From Gammaproteobacteria bacterium (lineage in GTDB: Bacteria > Pseudomonadota > Gammaproteobacteria > WOZS01), in assembly GCA_011620135.1 (NCBI GenBank), contig WOZS01000058.1:31534-95533 (forward strand): DNA of 64,000 bases, written 5' to 3'. Positions 3,259-58,088 of the stretch are shown in pieces. The position numbers were made by a program, and so were the translations under genes. The first letter of the stretch is position 1, and every line of letters starts with the position of its first letter. The notes below the pieces were generated by a model. That model had not been told where the DNA came from, made no database searches, and was given only the letters and a program-made list of their open reading frames with translations.

Positions 3259-4731
3259 CTAGTCCAGATCCAGGCGGTAGTTGGGGGCTTCCTTGATGAG
3301 GTGGACGTCGTGGACGTGGCTTTCCCGTACGCCAGCCTGGGTCAGTCGCAGGAAACGCACCCTGGTGCGCATCTCGGCGATGGTGGCGCAACCGGTGTAG
3401 CCCATGGCGGCCCGCAGCCCTCCCAGCAGCTGGCGGATGATCACCGAGACGCTGCCCCGATAAGGGACGCGGCCCTCGACCCCTTCGGGAACCAGTTTTC
3501 CTGTCTCGACACCCTCCTGGCCATAACGGTCCCTGGCACCCTCGGCCATGGCGCCCAGAGAACCCATGCCGCGATAGGTCTTGTAGGCGCGACCCTGGTA
3601 CAGCTCCACCTCGCCGGGAGCCTCGTCGGTGCCGGCAAACAGCCCGCCGATCATCACCGCACTGGCCCCGGCGGCAATGGCCTTGGCTATGTCGCCGGAA
3701 TAACGGATGCCGCCATCGGCGATCACGGGAATGTCCGTGCCTCGCAGGGCCTGGCTGGCCTGCCAGATGGCCGTGAGCTGCGGGGCGCCTACGCCAGCCA
3801 CCATGCGGGTGGTGCAGATGGAGCCCGGCCCCACACCCACCTTGACCGCATTGGCGCCGGCCCGCGCCAGGGCCGTGGCTCCCTCGCCGGTGGCCACGTT
3901 GCCGGCCACCACCAGGAGTTCAGGCCATTCTCGCTTGACGGTGCGCACCATCTCCAGCACCCGGGAGGAATGACCATGGGCGGTGTCGATGGCGATGCAA
4001 TCCACGCCAGCCTCGGTGAGGGCGGCGACCCTGGCCATGGTATCGGCGCCAGTCCCCACCGCAGCGCCCACCCGCAGCCGGCCATCGGGGTCCTTGCAGG
4101 CATTGGGAAAGTCCAGCGCCTTCTGGATGTCCTTGACGGTGATGAGGCCGCGCAGCGCGAAGTGGTCATCCACCACCAGGACCTTTTCGATGCGATGGCG
4201 ACGCAGCAGCTCGATGACTTCTGCAGTTGCAGTTCCTTCGCGCACGGTGACCAGGCGCTCTCGCGGCGTCATGATGGCGGAAACAGGCCGGTCCAGGGCT
4301 TCTTCGAAGCGCAGGTCGCGATGGGTGACGATGCCGCACAGCAATTCGCCATCCACCACGGGTACACCGGAGATGTTTTCCGAGCGGGTGATCTCCAGCA
4401 CGCGGCGGATGGTGGTCTGGGGGGTGACGGTAATTGGGTTGCGGATGACGCCGCTTTCGTATTTCTTGACAGCAGCCACCTGCCTGGCCTGGCGTTCCGG
4501 GGAGAGGTTGCGGTGGATGAAGCCGATGCCGCCATCCTGGGCCAGCGCGATGGCAAGCCTGCTTTCTGTGACCGTGTCCATGGCGGCACTGGCGATGGGG
4601 GCGTTCAGCACGATGCCCTGCACCAGCTGGGTTTCCAGGTTGACCTCGCTGGGCAGGCACTCCGAGAAGGCAGGTGCCAGCACCACATCATCAAAGGTGA
4701 GGGCTTCTGGGCCGTCAAATAGGTTCGACAT
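3259..4731 (-). CDS. guaB: IMP dehydrogenase
   Basis: [15 protein letters not shown]..., CBS pair, GSICTTR catalytic loop, full-length 490 aa. Confidence 0.95.
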
Positions 4732-4846
4732 GCTTTATGCTAGCATATGTGAGCACAACCTGTGCTCGTACAACGCGATGCCAATGATGGGGGTAGGTAG
4801 TGTTGTTGCGCTGCTGATGTATAATGAAAACCTCTAGCAATACCAC

Positions 4847-4879
4847 AGAGGTATAGTCTCCAGTTCTGACCTCTTTTTG
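4847..4879 (+). promoter_or_regulatory. leader hairpin plus U5 (attenuator/terminator-like) in the glgX 5' leader, downstream of a TATAAT -10 element (4820-4825)
   Basis: AGAGGT(4847-52)-16 nt-ACCTCT(4869-74)-TTTTT(4875-79). An upstream ACCTCT copy (4830-35) could pair with the same AGAGGT instead. The leader is AT-rich, runs about 130 nt, and ends at the glgX TTG with an AGGAG RBS. Confidence 0.3.
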
Positions 4880-4962
4880 CTTCCTTCAAGCATCAACCTT
4901 AAATCCTGCCTTCTTTAACTGTTTGATGATTGATCATGGATCGTATGTAGGAGCTACCAATC

Positions 4963-7101
4963 TTGAATGCCAAGAAAAGCGCTGTTTGGATCGGAGCACC
5001 TTATCCACTGGGTGCCACATGGGATGGTCTGGGCGTGAACTTCGCGCTCTTTTCGGATCATGCCGAAAAAGTAGAGCTGTGTCTGTTCGATGAAAGCGGC
5101 GAGCACCAGGTGGAAAGCATCACGCTGCCGGAGTGTACCGACAGGATTTTTCATGGCTATCTGCCCGAGGCCCGCCCCGGGCTGCTGTATGGCTATCGGG
5201 TCTATGGGCCCTATGACCCGCTAGCCGGCCACCGCTTCAATCACCATAAGCTGCTGCTGGATCCCTATGCCCGGGTGATTACCGATCACTTCCAGTGGCG
5301 TGACGAACACTTTGGCTATACCGTGGGCCATGAGCAGGAGGATCTCTCCTTCGATGAGCGCGACAGTGCCCCGTTTGCCTTGCGCGCCAAGGTGATCGAC
5401 CCGGCCTTCACCTGGGGCGACGACCGCAGTCCACGCATTCCCTGGCACGACACGGTGATCTATGAATGTCATGTCAAGGGCCTCACCAAGCTGCACCCGC
5501 TGGTCCCTGAGGCACTGCGGGGGACGTATGCCGCACTCGCCACCAAGCCCGTCCTCGATCATTTGAGGCAGTTGGGGGTGACGGCCATCGAGCTCATGCC
5601 GGTGCATGCCTTCATGAGGGATCGCATGCTGGTGGACCGCGGCCTCACCAACTACTGGGGCTACAATTCGATCGGCTACTTTGCCGCGGAGAACCACTAT
5701 TCCTCAACCGGCTTGGTGGGCGAGTTCAAGACCATGGTGAAAGCCATCCATGCCGCAGGCATGGAGGTGATCCTGGATGTGGTCTATAACCATACCGCAG
5801 AAGGCAATCACATGGGGCCCACGCTGTCGTTCCGGGGCATCGATAACAAGGCGTATTACCGGCTGGTGGATGGCGACCAGAGGCACTACATGGACTATAC
5901 GGGTTGCGGGAATACCCTCAACATGATGCATCCCAGGGTGCTGCAGCTGATCATGGACAGCCTGCGCTACTGGGTGCTGGAGATGCATGTGGACGGCTTC
6001 CGCTTCGACCTGGCCTCGGCGTTGGCCCGGGAGCTGCACGAGGTGGACCGCCTTGGTGCCTTTTTCGACATCATCTGCCAGGACCCGGTGCTCTCCCAGG
6101 TGAAACTGATCGCCGAGCCCTGGGACATCGGCGAGGGTGGCTACCAGGTGGGCAATTTTCCCGTGGGCTGGGCGGAATGGAACGGCAAATTCCGTGACTC
6201 GGTGCGCGCCTACTGGAAGGGTGATGGTGGCCTGATCGGCGATCTGGCCTATCGGCTCACCGGATCCAGCGATCTCTATGGGGACGATGGCCGCAGTCCA
6301 TCGGCCAGCATCAATTTTGTTACTGCCCATGACGGTTTCACCATGATGGACCTGGTCTCCTACAATTCAAAGCACAACGAGGCCAACGGCGAGGAGAACC
6401 GCGACGGCGACAACAACAACATCAGTTGGAACTGCGGCGTCGAAGGGCCCACGGACGATCCGACCATCCAGGCGTTGCGCCACCGCCAGGTGCGCAACCT
6501 CCTCGCGACCCTGTTTCTCTCCCAGGGCGTGCCCATGCTGCTCATGGGTGATGAGATGGGCCGGTCCCAGCAGGGCAACAACAACGCCTATTGCCAGGAC
6601 AACGAGCTCAGCTGGCTCGATTGGTCCCTGGTGGAACAAAACGCCGCTCTCCTGGCCTTTACCCAGCGCGCCATTGCGCTGCGCCAGCGCCATCCCGTTT
6701 TGCACCGGCGCCATTTCTTCCATGGTCGCAACATCAAGGGCCATGACATCAAGGACATCATGTGGCTCAATCCCAACGGTCACGAGCTCACCGATGAGGA
6801 ATGGGGGCATGACTTTGCCCGTTCGCTGGGCGTGTTCCTCGGTGGACATGGCTTGGATGAGCGGGATTATCAGGGCCGCCCCCTGGAAGACGACAACATG
6901 CTGCTGTTGCTCAATGCCCATGCCGACCAGGTGAGTTTCATGCTGCCCAAGCTCGCCCGCAACGGTCGTTGGACACCCCTGCTGAGCACAGCTGACACCC
7001 AGTTCAAGGCAAGCTATAGCCATGGTGTCAAGCTGGCCGTGCCAGGCCGCACCTTGATCCTGCTGGGGGACGGCCAGTATGACCATGAGAAATCCGCCTG
7101 A
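4963..7101 (+). CDS. glgX: glycogen debranching enzyme GlgX/TreX
   Basis: TTG start with AGGAG RBS. N-terminus [17 protein letters not shown] and GH13 catalytic motifs ([12 protein letters not shown]) match GlgX. Confidence 0.9.
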
Positions 7102-33195: not shown

Positions 33196-33345
33196 GAGCC
33201 AGGATGCGCTGGTTCCAGGGCTGAGCGCCACATAGCGGCGCAGGTCCCAGCGAGCCCAATCAGGTTGGGTCCGGCTGGCAGGTTTCGCCAGGAAGTCATG
33301 GGCTTGGCCCCTTGGCTCGGCAGCCCGCAGCCGGGCGGCGGATTG

Positions 33346-33354
33346 TGCTATCAT
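33346..33354 (+). promoter_or_regulatory. extended -10 (TGcTATCAT) promoter element for tRNA-Pro
   Basis: TGnTATCAT lies 37 nt upstream of the mature tRNA 5' end; the -35 is weak. Confidence 0.25.
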
Positions 33355-33390
33355 GCCCTTTCAGCGGGGCTTGAGTGGCTCCGGACGCCT

Positions 33391-33467
33391 CGGGGTATAG
33401 CGCAGCCTGGTAGCGCGCCTGCTTTGGGAGCAGGATGTCGGGGGTTCAAATCCCTCTACCCCGACCA
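33391..33467 (+). tRNA. tRNA-Pro (anticodon UGG)
   Basis: Cloverleaf folds by hand: acceptor CGGGGTA/TACCCCG, loop TTTGGGA, GGTTCAAAT T-loop, encoded CCA. Confidence 0.9.
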
Positions 33468-33631
33468 ATTTCCTTTTCAAGCGGGCGACCTGGTTCAACA
33501 GCGGGATCATGCCCATGGTCCACTGTGCCGACATAGCCCCCAGCGCCAGGGCGATGCCGGCAAGGCCCATGATGTCGCCAAAGCCTTTCCCGGGGAGCGG
33601 GAGGCAGCTGATAGCCTGCAGATTGCACTGA

Positions 33632-33707
<76 letters not shown>

Positions 33708-33746
33708 AGGGCTGGTATTATAGCAAGGAAACCAGCGAGGTAGACG

Positions 33747-33968
33747 ATGACCGAGCCATCTTCCAATCCAAGTGAACCCAACCCCGCGGCATATGTCAGC
33801 CGGCTGCTGGAGCTGCTGAATGTGCCATTGCATGGAACAGCTGGCGAGCAACAGGTCATCCTGGAATCGGTGGCTCACCACTGGACCGTATTGCGCACCA
33901 TGGCCACCATCATGCACCAGGGGCCGCTGAGGGCCCATGAGGAGCCGGCTGCGGTGTTCCGGCCGTGA
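33747..33968 (+). CDS. small protein translationally coupled to the amidase (possible AtzG/GatC-like partner)
   Basis: 73 codons, GAGG RBS. Its stop TGA overlaps the amidase GTG start (GTGA). The C-terminal ...EEPAAVFRP tail is reminiscent of GatC-like subunits. Confidence 0.45.
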   Translation: MTEPSSNPSEPNPAAYVSRLLELLNVPLHGTAGEQQVILESVAHHWTVLRTMATIMHQGPLRAHEEPAAVFRP

Positions 33969-35326
33969 GCCGCCCATCCATTGCCCAGTTGGCCAGCCAG
34001 GTGGCCACAGGCTGTCTTTCTGCCGTGCAGCTGGCCGAAGAGGCGCTGGCGCGCGCGCAACGGGATGCCTGCAATGCATTGACCGACGTGTTGCCCCAGC
34101 GCGCCCTGGCCGAGGCTCGGGCGGTGGATCAGGCGGTGGCGCAGGGCCAGGCCGTAGGGCCGCTGGCCGGGGTGCCCTATGTGGTCAAGAATCTCTTTGC
34201 CATCCAAGGCGTGGTACGGCGCGCAGGCACCCGGGTTCCCTTTGCGCCCGCTGTGGCCGATGCCGCGCTGGTGGCCCGGCTGCAGGCCGCAGGAGCCATC
34301 CTGATCGGCGCTGCCAACATGGATGAGCTGGCTTATGGTTTCGTCACCGAGAACGCCCATGCCGGTGCGGTCCACAACCCCTTGTGTCATGGACATATTG
34401 CCGGGGGCTCGTCGGGGGGCTCTGCTGCAGCCGTGGCAGCCAATATCGTGCCTTTTGCCCTGGGCAGCGACACCAACGGTTCCATCCGTGTGCCGGCGGC
34501 CCTGTGTGGTTTGTTTGGCCTGCGCCCCACCTATGGGCGCCTGAGCCGGGCTGGCAGCCAGCTCTTTGCAGCCAGCCTCGATACCGTGGGGCCGCTGGGG
34601 CGCACGCCGGACGATCTGATGACCCTGCTGGCTGTCCTGGAAGGGCAGGATGCAGCAGACCCTGTCTCCATGCCCATCCCCCAAGACGCGCTGGCCTGGA
34701 ACGCCGAGCCACGGCGGCCCTTGCGTCTGGCGGTTGTGGGCGGATACTGCCGGGATCATGCCGATGAGCCGGCCTGGACAGCTGTGCAGCATGCTGCCGC
34801 CGTGTTGGGGGTGACAAACGAGATCACCATTCCAAGCCTGGAGCAGGCCCGGGCGGCAGCCTATGTGCTCACCGCCAGCGAAGGGGGCAACCTGCATCGC
34901 GAACTCCTGGCCGAGCACGGGGCCCTGTTGGACCCGCAGGTCTATCCCCGGCTGCTGGCTGGACTGTGTGCCCCCGCCAGTTGGTACCTGGATGCCCAGC
35001 GGCTGCGTGCAGCCTACCGTGCCGCCATGGCAGAGGTGTTTCGGGATGTGGATGTGCTGCTGGCCCCCGCCGTCCCTGTGCCGGCGCCGCCCATTGGCAG
35101 TGCTACCATCACCATCAACGGCAGGAAGCAGCCCACCCGGGCGGCGATGGGTTTGCTGACACAGCCCTTTTCCCTGGCGGGATTACCCGCGGCGGTGGCC
35201 CCGCTGTGGCCCCAGGGCGGCCTGCCGGTGGGCGTGCAGTGCATCGCGCCACCCTGGAAGGATCACTGGTGCCTGCAGGTGGCCCAGGACCTCGATGAGG
35301 CCGGACTGACCCAGCGGCCAGTCTGA
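33965..35326 (+). CDS. amidase-signature family amidase (GatA/AtzE-like)
   Basis: GGSSGGSAAAVAA AS-signature with Ser-cisSer-Lys context (K..MDE..GSDTNGSIRVPAA). Confidence 0.85.
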   Translation: MSRPSIAQLASQVATGCLSAVQLAEEALARAQRDACNALTDVLPQRALAEARAVDQAVAQGQAVGPLAGVPYVVKNLFAIQGVVRRAGTRVPFAPAVADAALVARLQAAGAILIGAANMDELAYGFVTENAHAGAVHNPLCHGHIAGGSSGGSAAAVAANIVPFALGSDTNGSIRVPAALCGLFGLRPTYGRLSRAGSQLFAASLDTVGPLGRTPDDLMTLLAVLEGQDAADPVSMPIPQDALAWNAEPRRPLRLAVVGGYCRDHADEPAWTAVQHAAAVLGVTNEITIPSLEQARAAAYVLTASEGGNLHRELLAEHGALLDPQVYPRLLAGLCAPASWYLDAQRLRAAYRAAMAEVFRDVDVLLAPAVPVPAPPIGSATITINGRKQPTRAAMGLLTQPFSLAGLPAAVAPLWPQGGLPVGVQCIAPPWKDHWCLQVAQDLDEAGLTQRPV

Positions 35327-35339
35327 TCACCGCCTCTGC

Positions 35340-36329
35340 TCAGCAGGATTTGTACCTGCGATACCAGTTGGTGAACCGGGCCAGCCCTTCCTCGATGGAG
35401 ACCCGGGGGGTCAGGCCGGTCAGGGCCTTGAGATCACTGATGTCGCCAAAGGTCTCGGGCACATCGCCGGGCTGCAAGGGCAAAAGCTCGATGGCGGCCT
35501 GCCGGCCCAGGTAGCCTTCCAGTAAACGCACACACTCCATGATGGGCACCGGGTGGCCACTGGCCACATTGAGCACCCGATGTCGGGCGCGGCTCAGTTG
35601 TTCTTGGGGCGGGGCGCTTGGCGGCAGGGCGAGCACAGCCAACACCGCCTCGACCACATCGTCGATGTAGGTGAAATCCCGTCTATGGTGGCCGAAGTTG
35701 AAGATCGTCAGTGGCTGGCCACCCAGCATGCGCTCGGTGAACAGGTAGAGTGCCATGTCGGGTCGTCCCCAGGGCCCGTAGACCGTGAAGAAGCGCAGGC
35801 CCGTCGCCGGCAGGCCATGAAGATGGCTGTAGGAATAGGCCATGAGTTCGTTAGCCCGCTTGGTGGCGGCATAGAGGCTCAAGGGGGTGTCGGCATGGTC
35901 ATCCAGGGCGAAGGGCTGGCGTGTGCTGGCGCCATAGACCGAGCTGCTGGAGGCATAGACGAAATGCTCCACGGGATGACGCACCAAGGCATCCAGCACA
36001 TGGCCAAAGGCCACGAGATTGCTCTGTATGTAGAGTTCGGGGCACTGCATGGCGTAGCGCACCCCTGCCAAGGCCGCGAGATGGATCACGGCCTGGGCTT
36101 GGGTTTTTGCAAAATAGCTCAGCGTCGCTTCGCGGTCGGCCATCTCCAACTGCTGGAATGAAAACCCGGGGATTTCCTGGAGCTGGGCAAGACGGGCCTG
36201 CTTGAGGGTCACATCGTAATGGGGGCAGAGGTTGTCGCAGCCCAGCACCTCTTCATGCCGCGCCAGCAGGGCCTTGCTCACATGAAAGCCGATGAACCCG
36301 GCACAGCCGGTCACCATGATGCGCGCCAT
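35340..36329 (-). CDS. UDP-glucuronate 4-epimerase (NAD-dependent epimerase/dehydratase)
   Basis: VTGCAGFIGFHVS..CDNL..YYDV..YASSSSVYG..YAATK.. Near co-linear with known UDP-GlcA 4-epimerases. Confidence 0.85.
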   Translation of the reverse strand: MARIMVTGCAGFIGFHVSKALLARHEEVLGCDNLCPHYDVTLKQARLAQLQEIPGFSFQQLEMADREATLSYFAKTQAQAVIHLAALAGVRYAMQCPELYIQSNLVAFGHVLDALVRHPVEHFVYASSSSVYGASTRQPFALDDHADTPLSLYAATKRANELMAYSYSHLHGLPATGLRFFTVYGPWGRPDMALYLFTERMLGGQPLTIFNFGHHRRDFTYIDDVVEAVLAVLALPPSAPPQEQLSRARHRVLNVASGHPVPIMECVRLLEGYLGRQAAIELLPLQPGDVPETFGDISDLKALTGLTPRVSIEEGLARFTNWYRRYKSC

Positions 36330-39605: not shown

Positions 39606-39687
39606 GGAACCTGAGGATTGCGGGATTAGGCCATGAAAAAGCAGCCATGATGCCACCTGCCGCCTGGCCACGTGAAGGAGGATTGCC

Positions 39688-39735
39688 ATGCAGGGCCACA
39701 GCATGAGACAACATCATCGACAGGGCGCGCCATGA
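39688..39735 (+). CDS. 15-codon upstream ORF (MQGHSMRQHHRQGAP) translationally coupled to the MoxR gene
   Basis: AAGGAGGA RBS 6 nt upstream of ATG 39688. Its TGA overlaps the MoxR ATG (cATGAg). The MoxR ATG has no SD of its own. Confidence 0.3.
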   Translation: MQGHSMRQHHRQGAP

Positions 39736-40703
39736 GCGTCTCCTTGCAAAAGGACAGCCGGCTTGCAAGTCCCGCCATCGTGGCCGAAGGTCTGGAGCGC
39801 CTGGGCTACATCGCCTCGCCCAGTGTGGCGACCTCGGTCTATGTGTCAGCAGCGCTGGAAAAGCCTCTCTTGGTGGAAGGCCCAGCCGGCGTGGGCAAGA
39901 CCGAGCTGGCCAAAGCACTGGCACAGTACCTGCAAAAGCCGCTGATCCGCCTGCAGTGCTATGAGGGTCTCGACGAGGCCCGGGCGCTCTACGAGTGGAA
40001 ATACGGCAAGCAGCTGCTTTATGTGCAGCTCCTCAAGGACAAGATCGCCGAGCTCACGGCAGGCACCAAAACGCTGGAGCAGGCCCTGGCAGTCATTCAT
40101 GCCCAGGATGAGCTGTTTTTCTCCAGGGACTTTCTGGAGCCCCGCCCCCTGTTGCAGTCCCTGCAGGTGCCAGGCGGTGCTGTCTTGCTGGTGGACGAGG
40201 TGGACAAGGCAGACCCGGAGTTCGAGGCCCTGTTGCTGGAGGTGCTCTCCGATTTCCAGGTGAGCATTCCCGAATTGGGCACCATCGTCGCCACGGAAAA
40301 GCCGCTGGTGGTGCTCACCAGCAACCGCGTCCGGGAGATGGGTGACGCGTTGCGTCGGCGCTGCCTGCATCTCTATCTCAACTTTCCTGATGCTGCCCTG
40401 GAAGAGCGCATCGTGGCCGCCCAGGTGCCCCAGTGCACCGCCCGGCTGCGCGCCCAACTGGTGGCCTTTGTGCATGGCCTGCGCAAGCTGGACCTGCGCA
40501 AGCTCCCCGCCGTGAGCGAGACCATCGACTGGGCACGTACCCTGGTGCTGCTGCATGCCGATCAGCTGGCTTGGGACCTGGTGCAGGATACCCTCAATGT
40601 GTTGCTCAAGTTCCAGGAGGACGCCGAGCAGGTCCATCACCAGGGCCTGCGCCTGGTGCAAGAGGCCTGCCGCGATGGACCGCACGCTGCTGCTCTTCGT
40701 TGA
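39732..40703 (+). CDS. MoxR-family AAA+ ATPase (CoxD-like)
   Basis: LLVEGPAGVGKTELAKALA Walker A, VLLVDEVDKA Walker B, about 320 aa. Confidence 0.85.
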   Translation: MSVSLQKDSRLASPAIVAEGLERLGYIASPSVATSVYVSAALEKPLLVEGPAGVGKTELAKALAQYLQKPLIRLQCYEGLDEARALYEWKYGKQLLYVQLLKDKIAELTAGTKTLEQALAVIHAQDELFFSRDFLEPRPLLQSLQVPGGAVLLVDEVDKADPEFEALLLEVLSDFQVSIPELGTIVATEKPLVVLTSNRVREMGDALRRRCLHLYLNFPDAALEERIVAAQVPQCTARLRAQLVAFVHGLRKLDLRKLPAVSETIDWARTLVLLHADQLAWDLVQDTLNVLLKFQEDAEQVHHQGLRLVQEACRDGPHAAALR

Positions 40704-42015
40704 GGCGCTGCGCCAGGCTGGGGTGCGCATCACGCCTGACGAGACCACAGACGCCTTGCGCATCGCAGGGGAGGTGGGGCTTGCCGAGCGCGATACCCTG
40801 CGTGAGGTGCTGGGTTGCACGCTGGCCAAGTCGGTGGCGGACAAACGGCGTTTCGAGGCCACGTTCCAGCGCTTCTTTGCCCTGCCGGGCTCTTCTGCCG
40901 ATTCCCCCCAGCAAACGGCACCGACAGCCGGGGCCACTGCGGACGATGCAGGCCTGCCGCAGGCCGAGCCTGCAGCTGGTGACCTGTCCCAGGAACCGGG
41001 CGTTATGATGCAGCAGCGCCTCGCCGCCGCCGCCCGGGAGATGCGCATCGACACCATCGCGCTGCCCACCCAGAAGGGCCTCTATACCCGCAGGCTGGCC
41101 ATGGCCGCAGGTGGCGAGGAGTTGGAGGCTGCCTGGCAGTTGGCCCAGCGCCAGGGCGATCTCGAGACCGCAGCGCAGCTTGCAGCCCAGGGCGAGCGGT
41201 TGCGCGCCCATGCCCGCGCCATGGTGGAGCAGGCCTATCAGCTCTACGGCAAGGGGCGCATGCAGGCCCTCAGCGACATCATCCTGCAGGAAAAGCCGCT
41301 GTCGGCGCTGGAGACCCGGGATCTCAAGCGCATGCGTCCTTTGGTGGAGGCCATGGCCCAGCGCCTCAAAGACAAGCGGCGCATCACGCGCCATCTGCGC
41401 CGCGGCACGCTGGATGTGCGGCGCACGCTGCGCGCCAACATGGGGCACGATGGCGTCCTGATGGAGGTGGCCTGGCACAGGCGGCTGCAGCAGCAGCCCA
41501 GGCTCGTGGCGCTGTGCGACGTGAGCCGTTCGGTGGAGCGTTATGTGCGCTTTTTGCTGATGCTGCTCTTCGAGCTCAAGTCGGTGATCCGCGATCTGCA
41601 GGTCTTTGCCTTTGCCGGCGATGTCGCCTGTGTCAATGAACTGTTCCAGCGGCTGAGCCTCGAGCAGGCCCTCGATGCCGTGCCCCACGCCGCCCCCGGC
41701 GGGGCCACCGACTATGGCCAGCTGTGGCGTCACATGACAGCCCATCAGCTCCATCTCTTCAACCGGCAGACCACCGTGCTGGTGCTGGGCGATGCCCGCT
41801 CCAACGACCTCGACCCGGAAGTGGCGTTGCTGCGCCGCCTCTCTGCCCAGGTGAAGCGGGTCATGTGGCTTGATCCCGAGCCACGCGTCCAGTGGGGCTG
41901 GGGGGATTCGGTCATCTGGCGTTACCGGCCGTTGCTACATGGCTTGCATGAATGTAGTACCTTGTTGCAATTGGAGCACGCCGTGAACCGGGCTCTGGTG
42001 GATTTCGGGGCATGA
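40675..42015 (+). CDS. VWA-domain protein (CoxE-like partner of the MoxR ATPase)
   Basis: Overlaps the MoxR 3' end. C-terminal VWA domain with CDVSRS MIDAS-like motif. Confidence 0.8.
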   Translation: MDRTLLLFVEALRQAGVRITPDETTDALRIAGEVGLAERDTLREVLGCTLAKSVADKRRFEATFQRFFALPGSSADSPQQTAPTAGATADDAGLPQAEPAAGDLSQEPGVMMQQRLAAAAREMRIDTIALPTQKGLYTRRLAMAAGGEELEAAWQLAQRQGDLETAAQLAAQGERLRAHARAMVEQAYQLYGKGRMQALSDIILQEKPLSALETRDLKRMRPLVEAMAQRLKDKRRITRHLRRGTLDVRRTLRANMGHDGVLMEVAWHRRLQQQPRLVALCDVSRSVERYVRFLLMLLFELKSVIRDLQVFAFAGDVACVNELFQRLSLEQALDAVPHAAPGGATDYGQLWRHMTAHQLHLFNRQTTVLVLGDARSNDLDPEVALLRRLSAQVKRVMWLDPEPRVQWGWGDSVIWRYRPLLHGLHECSTLLQLEHAVNRALVDFGA

Positions 42016-54828: not shown

Positions 54829-56187
54829 ATGGCCCAGGAAACCATTGCCGCCATGGCCACAGCCCCAGGGTGTGGCGCCATTGGCATTGTGCGGGTCTGC
54901 GGACCAGCCACCCGTGATGTGGCCATGGCCATTACCGGTACGGTACCTCCCGCCCGCACCGCCACATTGGCCACATTCAGCAACCAGCAAGGGGCATCCA
55001 TTGACGAGGGCATTGCCATTTTTTTTGAGGCGCCGGCATCTTATACTGGGGAGGATTGCCTCGAACTGCAAGGGCATGGCGGTCGTGTCGTGCTCAACCA
55101 GGTTCTGGAGGCTGTGCTCGCCTGTGGTGTGCGTCTGGCGCATCCTGGTGAATTTACCCAACGGGCCTTTCGCCACGGCAAGCTGAATCTCATCCAGGCC
55201 GAGGCAGTGGCGGATCTGATCCAGGCCAGCACGCCACAGGCCGCGCTGGCGGCGTCGCGTTCGTTGCGTGGCGTCTTTTCGGATGCCGTCTATGAGATGG
55301 CCGAGATGCTCGCCGAGATGCGCAGCACCATGGAGGCCTCTATCGATTTTGCCGAGGACATGGACGCAGGGCTGGATATCATGGGCGCAGTCCGGGTCAT
55401 GCTGCAGGCGCTGCGCGCCAGGCTGGCGGGTGTCTTGACTCAGGCCCGTGAAGGCCGGGCGGTGGCCGAAGGCCTGCAGGTGGTTCTGGTGGGGGCGCCC
55501 AACGCCGGAAAATCCAGCCTGTTCAATGTGCTGAGTGGTGAGGAGGCGGCCATTGTCACCGCCATGCCGGGCACCACCAGGGATGCCTTGCTGCGCCAGA
55601 TCCTCTTGGAAGGCCTGCTGATCAATCTGACGGATACAGCGGGTCTGGCCCCATTGCCGGATCCCATCGAGGCTATGGGCATAGAGAAAACGAAAATGTC
55701 CTGCCTAAGGGCCGATCTGCTGCTGGCGGTGGCCAGCGACGATGAACCTTTCAGTGTCCAGCAGGAGATGGTGCAACGGCTGCTGCAGGAACTGGGCAGC
55801 CATGTGGCGGTCCTTTGGGTGCGCAACAAGATCGATCTGACGGGTTCTCCTGCCGCCATCGAGGTGCAAGACGGCGCCAGCATGGTCTATTGTTCAGCGC
55901 TGAATGGGGTCGGCATGGATTTGCTGCGCCAGGCCATCAAAGACCAACTGCTGCAAGGGCATAGCAATCCGGAGCCCGCCTTTGCAGCCCGGCGGCGCCA
56001 TGTGGAATCCCTCACCCAGGTCAATGCCTTCCTTCAGGCCACAGACCATTTCCTGGCCCAGGGCCCGCTTGAGCTGGCCGCCGAGCAATTGCGCCAGGCA
56101 CAGGTGGCATTGGGCGAGATCGTGGGGGAATCCAGCAACGAGGCATTGCTGGAGCGCATCTTCAGCAGCTTCTGTATCGGCAAGTGA
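54829..56187 (+). CDS. mnmE: tRNA modification GTPase MnmE
   Basis: G-domain [10 protein letters not shown]; ends ...FCIGK (MnmE C-terminal CxGK). Confidence 0.95.
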
Positions 56188-56207
56188 ATGATGGAGAGGG
56201 CAGCAGG

Positions 56208-58088
56208 ATGAGCGATGGCCTGGCCTATGACGTGGTTGTCATTGGGGGCGGTCATGCCGGGTGTGAGGCTGCTGCCGCGGCAGTACGACTGGGCGCGCGT
56301 GCGCTGCTGTTGACCAGCAGACGGGCCACCATTGGGCAGATGAGCTGCAACCCGGCCTTTGGGGGCATTGGCAAGGGGCATCTCATCAAGGAGATCGATG
56401 CCTTGGACGGTCTGATGGGCCGGGCTGCCGAGGCGGCGGCCATCCATGGCCGCACCCTCAATGCCTCCAAAGGCAAGGCCGTGCAGGCCACCCGGTTGCA
56501 GGCCGATCGCTCCTGCTACCGGGAAGCCATGCAGCAGCTGCTGGATGGGGTGCCGGGTCTTGTGGTGGAAGAGGCCACGGTGGTGGATCTGGCGCTGTGC
56601 CGCGCCGCCAGGGACGGCCGGCAAAGCATCGAGGCTGTGATTACGGAAGATGGCAGGCGTTTTGCGGCCCATGCCGTGGTGCTGACCGCAGGTACTTTCC
56701 TGTGCGGCACCATGTATATCGGGTTGAGCATGGCTGCCGGCGGCCGGCGGGATGATGCGGCCGCCACAGCGCTGGGCGAGGTCCTGCGACGTCTGCCCCT
56801 GGGTGCAGGACGCCTCAAGACCGGCACTCCACCGCGGCTTGCGGCAGAAAGCATCGATGTGTCGGCCATGGTACCGCAACCGGGTGACCAACCCTTACCG
56901 AGACTCTCTTTTCTGCCCAGACTCAAACCTGTCCTGCCCCAGGTGAGTTGTTATCAGACAGCCACCACGCCACGAACCCATGCCATCGTGCGCGCAGCGC
57001 TGGACCAGTCACCGCTCCATGCCGGACTCATCAAGGGAACGGGGCCGCGTTATTGCCCTTCCATCGAGGACAAGGTGGTGCGCTTTGCCGAGAAGGTCGC
57101 CCATCATGTGTTCATCGAGCCAGAAGGGCTGGAGAGCACGGAGGTCTATCCCAACGGCATTTCCACCAGCCTGCCTGAAGAGGTGCAGCTGGCCATGGTT
57201 CGCTCCATTCCTGGTCTCGAGCAGGCCAGGATCACCAAGCCGGGCTATGCCATCGAGTACGATTATTTCGATCCTCGTGAGCTCACGCCGAGCCTGGCCT
57301 CCCGACATGTGCCCAATCTGTTCCTGGCAGGTCAGGTCAATGGCACCACCGGTTACGAGGAGGCTGCTGCCCAGGGTCTGCTGGCAGGGCTCAACTCAGC
57401 TCGATTCGTGGCAGGACTGCCGTCATGGACGCCCAGCCGCCAGGAAGCCTATCTGGGCGTGCTGGTGGACGACCTGCTGACCCAGGGAGCCCCGGAACCC
57501 TATCGCATGTTCACCAGTCGTGCCGAATACCGCCTTGCCCTGCGGGAGGACAACGCCGATCTGCGCCTGACGACCACGGGCCGCCAGCTGGGTCTGGTAG
57601 GGGCTGCACGCTGGCAGGCTTATTGCATGAAAGCCGAGGCCATGGCGATGGTCCGGTCACGCCTGCAGCAGCAGGTCATCCGGCCGGGTGATGACTGTGC
57701 TCGTTTTCTGGCCGGGCACGGGGTATCCATCCGCGAGGCCAGTACAGCACTTGGTTTGCTGGGGCGCAGTGACTGCAATCTCGAGCTCCTGCAGCAGGCC
57801 AGCGCGGCTTTGATGGATCTGGATAGTGAGGCAAGTCGCGTTCTGGAGTATGAATTGAAATATCAACCCTACATCGCGCGTGCCGCAGCCAATGAGGCAC
57901 GTCGGGCCGATCGCACGATCAGTCTGCCGCTGCATCTGGATTACACTGTCGTATCAGGCCTGACCATAGAGGCCCGGGATCGGCTCAGTGCAGCGCGCCC
58001 CCGGACCCTGGATGAGGCGGCGCGGTTGTCCGGGGTGACGCCAGCTGCATTGTCCTGCATTCTGAGCCATCTGGCCAAAAGCGCCTGA
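56208..58088 (+). CDS. mnmG: tRNA uridine 5-carboxymethylaminomethyl modification enzyme MnmG (GidA)
   Basis: [19 protein letters not shown] motif; 626 aa. Confidence 0.95.

Follow-up and report, generated by a model that had tools for sequence, protein, structure and literature searches.

An AtzG-like small ORF overlapping an AtzE-family amidase gene: a predicted two-subunit amidase in an uncultured proteobacterial lineage

We analyzed a 64,000-nucleotide stretch of DNA (the window) from a Gammaproteobacteria bacterium (assembly GCA_011620135.1, contig WOZS01000058.1, positions 31,534 to 95,533), in which a 73-codon open reading frame (ORF) runs into the start of an amidase gene. A first reading of the DNA letters, called here the original prediction, had proposed that this small ORF has its own ribosome-binding site, ends inside the GTG start codon of a GatA/AtzE-type amidase, and encodes a GatC/AtzG-like accessory subunit of the enzyme. 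The features of the locus are as follows, in window coordinates.

33737..33740, plus strand: Shine-Dalgarno-like GAGG, 6 bases 5' of the ATG of the small ORF (read from the sequence)
33747..33968, plus strand: atzG-like gene, 73 amino acids, predicted noncatalytic small subunit of the AtzG / HpxX / DUF4089 family, divergent (PF13318, hhalign, 63-sequence profile, sister contig)
33965..33968, plus strand: GTGA start/stop overlap, the probable translational coupling junction (ORF list, ATGA in the sister contig, metagenomic junctions)
33965..35326, plus strand: atzE-family amidase-signature amidohydrolase, 453 amino acids, predicted catalytic subunit (NCBIfam, Pfam, PDB 6C62_A)
34187..34189, plus strand: codon of Lys75, catalytic Lys of the triad, in the VKNLF motif (invariant column of alignment A4, motif position)
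34409..34411, plus strand: codon of Ser149, presumed cis-Ser, first Ser of GGSSGG (invariant column, motif position)
34481..34483, plus strand: codon of Ser173, nucleophile Ser of GSDTNGSIRVPA (invariant column, motif position)

The small ORF starts at an ATG and translates into MTEPSSNPSEPNPAAYVSRLLELLNVPLHGTAGEQQVILESVAHHWTVLRTMATIMHQGPLRAHEEPAAVFRP. An in-frame TAG lies two codons 5' of this ATG, so position 33747 is the earliest usable start codon in the frame. At the other end, the TGA of the small ORF (33966-33968) overlaps the GTG of the amidase (33965-33967). The coordinates, the presence of a ribosome-binding site, and the GTGA read from the sequence were as originally described, and the quoted tail of the ORF was exact. 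The GC content at codon positions 1, 2, and 3 of the small ORF (0.67/0.47/0.73) is like that of the neighboring genes. Taken alone, a 73-codon ORF is to be expected by chance in so GC-rich a window: the six frames of the 64 kb (62-66% GC) contain 444 stop-to-stop ORFs that reach 73 amino acids or more, and the 10 kb around the small ORF contain 84 ORFs of at least 50 amino acids. We considered the small ORF to be real because of its homology, its position, and its conservation.

A single Pfam family matched the small ORF at an E value of up to 10, namely, PF13318 (AtzG-like, formerly DUF4089), with 23.1 bits and an E value of 9.5e-5. When the window ORF and its sister (see below) were combined into one profile and compared by hhalign with seven annotated AtzG/HpxX/DUF4089 proteins, the match reached a probability of 95.6% with an E value of 1.2e-8 over residues 7-73. 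Furthermore, a hidden Markov model (HMM) of 63 metagenomic AtzG-like sequences, which left out both the window ORF and the sister, scored the small ORF at 30.3 bits (E = 1.8e-8), and it matched no other of the 1,019 ORFs that span 35 amino acids or more in the six frames of the window. The C-terminal motif of the family (pL...E.ApvF.P) and its central V..h..r.a.mA helix region align with window residues 42-73, VAHHWTVLRTMATIMHQGPLRAHEEPAAVFRP. In a multiple alignment that included AtzG as well as two annotated DUF4089 proteins, the sequences were collinear from the N-terminal A-Y through the C-terminal (V/I)(F/Y)RP, and BLASTP against authentic AtzG of pADP-1 gave 33% identity across the C-terminal 33 residues of the small ORF. 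The tail HEEPAAVFRP, first likened to the C terminus of GatC-like proteins, fits the AtzG-family consensus pLpdddEpApvFrp. Similarity to AtzG profiles was therefore present by PF13318, by hhalign, and by the 63-sequence HMM, and the AtzG half of the proposed GatC/AtzG likeness held, whereas no Pfam GatC family was matched at the above-mentioned E value. A PDB profile search with alignment A2 also found AtzG (6C62_C); this search was circular, as A2 includes AtzG, and we did not count it as evidence. As judged from sequence, the small ORF is a real gene encoding a very divergent AtzG.

A sister of the window pair provided evidence of selection. The small protein of the sister has 72 amino acids and is 76% identical to that of the window in a global alignment, and the sister gene occurs in identical form on two metagenomic contigs. 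A word-indexed search of 5.8 billion proteins matched the small ORF to itself and to one sister only. Synteny in the sister is the same as in the window, the sister contig (L002) has exactly the same stretch from the Shine-Dalgarno sequence to the ATG (GCGAGGTAGACGATG), and the 4-base overlap is kept despite a different start codon of the amidase (ATGA in the sister versus GTGA in the window). Against the sister, the small ORF had a Nei-Gojobori ratio of nonsynonymous to synonymous substitution (dN/dS) of 0.39 and the amidase one of 0.21, so that both genes are under purifying selection.

The identity of the larger partner was examined with curated families and solved structures. The 453-amino-acid protein scored 550 bits with NCBIfam NF006631 (cut-off, 461), 538.6 bits with TIGR02715 (cut-off, 425.75), and 316 bits with Pfam Amidase, and it reached only 264 bits with the GatA model TIGR00132 (cut-off, 481). 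The assignment to a GatA/AtzE-type amidase was thus borne out and narrowed to the AtzE family. Among solved structures, its best match is AtzE of Pseudomonas sp. strain ADP (PDB 6C62_A; E = 4.1e-118, residues 9-449), and it is 47% identical to pADP-1 atzE by tblastn. The triad of K75, S149, and S173 is intact, and all three columns are invariant. We take Ser149 to be the cis-Ser by analogy with Ser217 of FAAH, and the spacing of 24 residues between Ser149 and Ser173 equals that of Ser217 and Ser241 in FAAH. A scan of a genome collection with the amidase alone returned four distant amidases of 29-46% identity, which were not used.

We then considered how often the two families are paired. In the annotated records of pADP-1, Acidithiobacillus caldus, Terrarubrum, Klebsiella, and Roseomonas, the gene immediately 5' of the AtzE-family gene is of the AtzG/DUF4089/HpxX kind, and the same layout was found in four contigs from metagenomes or metagenome-assembled genomes that carry the closest AtzE homologues. 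A metagenome scan gave 80 AtzE-family loci (45-53% identity), 74 of which had 200 bases or more of DNA upstream. An AtzG-like ORF was present upstream of the amidase in 73 of the 74; a clear one abutted the amidase in 71, one lay ~250 bases upstream, and one was a divergent copy detected by the larger HMM only. The two genes overlapped by 4 bases at 49 of 72 AtzG-AtzE junctions. The arrangement in the window is therefore the family norm, and the conservation of a small ORF upstream of orthologous amidases, on which the original prediction could have failed, was found. With 73 amino acids, the small subunit compares with a median of 68 in the start-trimmed metagenomic set. AtzH was encoded directly downstream of the amidase in 37 of the 80 loci and at another place in the locus in 8, whereas 29 loci with at least 500 bases of downstream DNA had no AtzH in the flanks that were fetched (up to 4 kb).

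Some of these loci depart from the common layout. L027 (AtzE-family match at 4001-5362), on a low-GC contig, is the sole locus of the 74 without an upstream AtzG-like ORF, and an unrelated gene stops ~35 bases short of its amidase; this AtzE may be independent of AtzG, or its small subunit may be encoded elsewhere. In L012 (5435-6004) and L077 (3369-3935), the ORF directly 5' of the AtzE gene encodes a 189-amino-acid fusion of an AtzH-like (NTF2/DUF3225) domain and an AtzG-like domain, which suggests that AtzH is physically associated with the AtzEG complex. ORFs of 160 to 733 amino acids with a C-terminal AtzG-like domain were also seen in L037 (210-2408), L061 (2148-2966, read from stop to stop), and L080 (3466-3945). 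The N-terminal part of these three had no Pfam match, and they may be more fusions or may reflect mis-set starts in stop-free GC-rich DNA.

Together, these results lead us to propose, with a probability of roughly 0.88, that the overlapping ORFs together make up a two-gene unit for a heteromeric amidase of the AtzE/AtzG type. The window would then encode a two-subunit amidase, in which the catalytic subunit is a 453-amino-acid amidase-signature hydrolase with a Ser-cisSer-Lys triad and the small subunit is a 73-amino-acid noncatalytic partner that probably descends from GatC. Through the GTGA overlap, the two genes are probably coupled in translation, which would favor balanced production of the subunits. 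In Pseudomonas sp. strain ADP, AtzG is noncatalytic and assembles with AtzE into an obligate heterotetramer, AtzE is not soluble when AtzG is missing, and the AtzEG complex is believed to derive from GatCA (PMC6219798). We infer that the window pair likewise forms an AtzE-AtzG complex, with a chaperone-like role of the small subunit. The substrate is most likely a small N-carboxylated or ureido amide that would be deaminated, of the 1-carboxybiuret or oxalurate type; this class is drawn from two named family members only, AtzE, which acts on 1-carboxybiuret, and HpxXY, whose oxalurate-related activity is itself only proposed.

The genomic context of the pair is chromosomal housekeeping. Directly 5' of it lie genes for tRNA-Pro (33391-33467, plus strand) and tRNA-Ala (minus strand), and 3' of it lies a convergent gene for an NAD-dependent epimerase, with a UDP-sugar dehydrogenase among the genes further downstream. 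Elsewhere, the window encodes IMPDH, GlmS, ATP synthase, NrdD, YidC, MnmG, flagellin, and CheA. tblastn searches with AtzD, AtzH/HpxZ (three versions), and AtzF found nothing in the 64-kb window beyond the amidase itself, and no nitrogen-catabolism gene was present in it among those screened. Because the pair is isolated amid housekeeping genes and the 64 kb contain no atzD, atzH/hpxZ, or atzF, the locus is not a cyanuric acid operon. An Rfam search found two tRNAs only and no riboswitch, and a consensus scan of 33200-35700 revealed neither a sigma-70-type promoter nor a terminator for atzGE. In the region 33632-33749, the divergent tRNA-Ala(CGC) gene on the minus strand has its 5' end at 33707, which leaves only 39 bases before the ATG of the atzG-like gene at 33747. 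A perfect TATAAT lies on the minus strand there (33722 to 33717), ~10 bases 5' of tRNA-Ala, so the tRNA-Ala promoter region overlaps the Shine-Dalgarno sequence and the start of the small ORF. Transcription of atzGE may occur by read-through from tRNA-Pro. The yidC and mnmG genes are close together, which suggests that the window is near the replication origin. At 39672-42015, two adjacent overlapping ORFs resemble a MadB family AAA ATPase (318 bits) and a MadC family VWA-domain protein (132 bits), both with scores below the NCBIfam cut-offs.

Several observations weigh against the reading as an AtzE/AtzG-type pair. The PF13318 score of the small ORF falls 0.9 bit short of the gathering score of 24, and an NCBIfam search with it returned no match. 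A phmmer search of the PDB with the 73-amino-acid protein was also blank and missed AtzG, which indicates that AtzG is invisible to a single-sequence search. A two-sequence profile of the ORF and its sister, run with HMMER against 1.84 billion representatives, recovered the sister alone at an E value of up to 0.001; a 73-amino-acid query cannot reach significance at such a database size. By a 7-seed HMM, the small ORF was the lowest of all 73 AtzG-like ORFs (22.5 bits versus a median of 52.6), and its 6-residue internal insertion was present in 0 of 63 others. On the amidase side, 10 of the 132 columns conserved at 93% or more are off consensus (D79A, T85R, K187R, H207T, A219M, D223A, Q226E, F262C, T370V, and E433D), compared with a median of 3, a 95th percentile of 7, and a maximum of 11 across the AtzE family. 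The amidase also has a 2-residue deletion in an otherwise conserved AGS(K/R)INR stretch. Given the ten changes and the deletion, specificity or subunit contacts may have shifted.

The small subunit has, in addition, a 9-residue Pro/Ser-rich extension at its N terminus. The sister shares all ten amidase changes except A219M; it has K there, likewise departing from the A of the family. At window positions 34220-34240, corresponding to amidase residues 85-91, the window and sister enzymes read AGTRV--PFAP versus AGS(K/R)INRxxPPA in 8 other AtzE-family proteins, and both the deletion and T85R fall a few residues past the catalytic-Lys motif. The divergence of the amidase tracks that of its genome, and no special acceleration need be invoked, since its pattern of identity (88% to the sister and then 54-55% to the next relatives) parallels that of MnmG. 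The latter (56184-58085) is 82-89% identical to three uncultured relatives and 57-58% identical to its nearest nonsister relatives, of which the named ones are Gammaproteobacteria. By these sequence distances, the host belongs to a deep-branching, poorly sampled, uncultured proteobacterial lineage.

One possible account of this divergence is that the window carries a lineage-specific AtzEG pair whose substrate has moved away from both 1-carboxybiuret and oxalurate and which works as a stand-alone, AtzH-free, chromosomally fixed amidase. We regard this refinement as tentative and rather unlikely. It is suggested by the small subunit, the most divergent of its set, with its insertion, by the ten changes and the deletion in the amidase, and by the lack of atzH and of a nitrogen-catabolism gene in the window. 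The missing atzH is in itself unremarkable, as ~40% of the sampled loci have no adjacent atzH either, and AtzH next to the pair is thus dispensable in that share of loci.

Less probable is the reading of the pair as a true 1-carboxybiuret hydrolase of cyanuric acid (s-triazine) mineralization, with atzD, atzH, atzF, or biuH located elsewhere in the genome. The amidase does pass the NCBIfam AtzE "equivalog" model, it resembles the characterized pADP-1 enzyme both by tblastn (47%) and by its match to the 6C62 sequence (E = 4e-118), and AtzD and AtzF do adjoin some AtzG-AtzE loci. Against this stand the blank tblastn searches for AtzD, AtzH/HpxZ, and AtzF across the 64 kb, the neighborhood of tRNA genes, sugar-nucleotide enzymes, and housekeeping genes, the ten amidase changes at family-conserved positions, and the annotation of the same family in Klebsiella as HpxX/HpxY of oxalurate catabolism. 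The link to the cyanuric acid pathway made at first through AtzE-AtzG is accordingly unsupported by the context, atzD, atzH, and atzF being absent from the window by tblastn.

We found it very improbable that the small ORF encodes no functional protein and either arose by chance in GC-rich DNA or is a leader ORF translated solely to load ribosomes onto the GTG of the amidase. ORFs of its length are abundant in the window, its score is under the Pfam gathering threshold, and no Shine-Dalgarno sequence lies near the amidase GTG, so reinitiation would help. These points are outweighed by the full-length alignment to AtzG-like proteins with the C-terminal motif included, by the unique HMM match among the window ORFs, by a dN/dS of 0.39 with frame and junction preserved in the sister, and by a homologous ORF at 73 of 74 orthologous loci. 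Least probable of all, and rejected on curated family cut-offs, is that the pair represents gatC and gatA of the GatCAB tRNA-dependent amidotransferase (transamidosome): GatCA is the presumed ancestor of AtzEG (PMC6219798), and GatA chains are the next-best PDB matches of the amidase (E = 1e-63 to 1e-46), but the amidase passes the AtzE models and not TIGR00132, the small ORF matches the AtzG-like family alone in Pfam, and the next gene downstream is the convergent epimerase gene and not gatB.

Both families and their pairing were already known, and what the preferred AtzE/AtzG reading adds is one unusually divergent member. The original prediction had expected such small partners to be overlooked in annotation. 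For gene calling, this expectation did not hold, since the exact protein is present in a record of NCBI source (P0001); for functional naming it did, as that record has no Pfam domain and NCBIfam gives no match. Below the Pfam threshold and unnamed in NCBIfam, the protein would be called "hypothetical" by annotation pipelines. The pairing offers a usable annotation rule, namely, that an AtzG-like ORF lies directly 5' of the amidase gene in 73 of 74 AtzE-family loci, mostly with a 4-base overlap. If expressed alone, the window amidase would probably be insoluble, as AtzE was (PMC6219798).

Three known systems can be compared with the window pair. GatC-GatA of GatCAB, the proposed evolutionary ancestor of AtzEG (PMC6219798), likewise combines an amidase-signature catalytic subunit with a small partner encoded just upstream. 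The window differs from it in an amidase that fails the GatA equivalog cut-off, in a small ORF without a Pfam GatC match, and in having no neighboring gatB. In the HPX purine/oxalurate cluster of Klebsiella pneumoniae, the DUF4089/AtzG-like HpxX gene overlaps by 4 bases the gene of an AtzE-family amidase that is ~45% identical to that of the window. There, hpxZ (AtzH-like) lies directly downstream, and the regulator hpxU and an ABC transporter lie upstream, none of which occur in the window. The activity of HpxXY is only proposed, and its naming is inconsistent in PMC12625717. More generally, atzG-atzE-atzH clusters occur widely, in most cases lack atzD and atzF, and are located close to genes for the catabolism of nitrogen compounds (PMC6219798).

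The third system is the 1-carboxybiuret hydrolase AtzE-AtzG of Pseudomonas sp. strain ADP (pADP-1 atzDGEHF; PDB 6C62/6C6G), which is built from the same two families with the small subunit encoded first. Its genes are part of an operon with atzD, atzH, and atzF on a catabolic plasmid, whereas the window pair has none of these nearby and sits in a chromosomal housekeeping setting. At the junction of the two genes, the window has a 4-base overlap and pADP-1 a 2-base gap. Compared with pADP-1 AtzG, the window small subunit adds the 6-residue insertion and the Pro/Ser-rich N-terminal extension and lacks the 8-residue tail that follows YRP in AtzG; compared with pADP-1 AtzE, the window amidase carries the ten substitutions at family-conserved positions and the 2-residue deletion. 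The sizes are nevertheless close (73 and 453 amino acids in the window versus 68 and 457 in pADP-1). The small subunits align end to end, including the ...PL...E.A.(V/I)(F/Y)RP tail, and the window amidase matches pADP-1 AtzE over its whole length with the triad kept.

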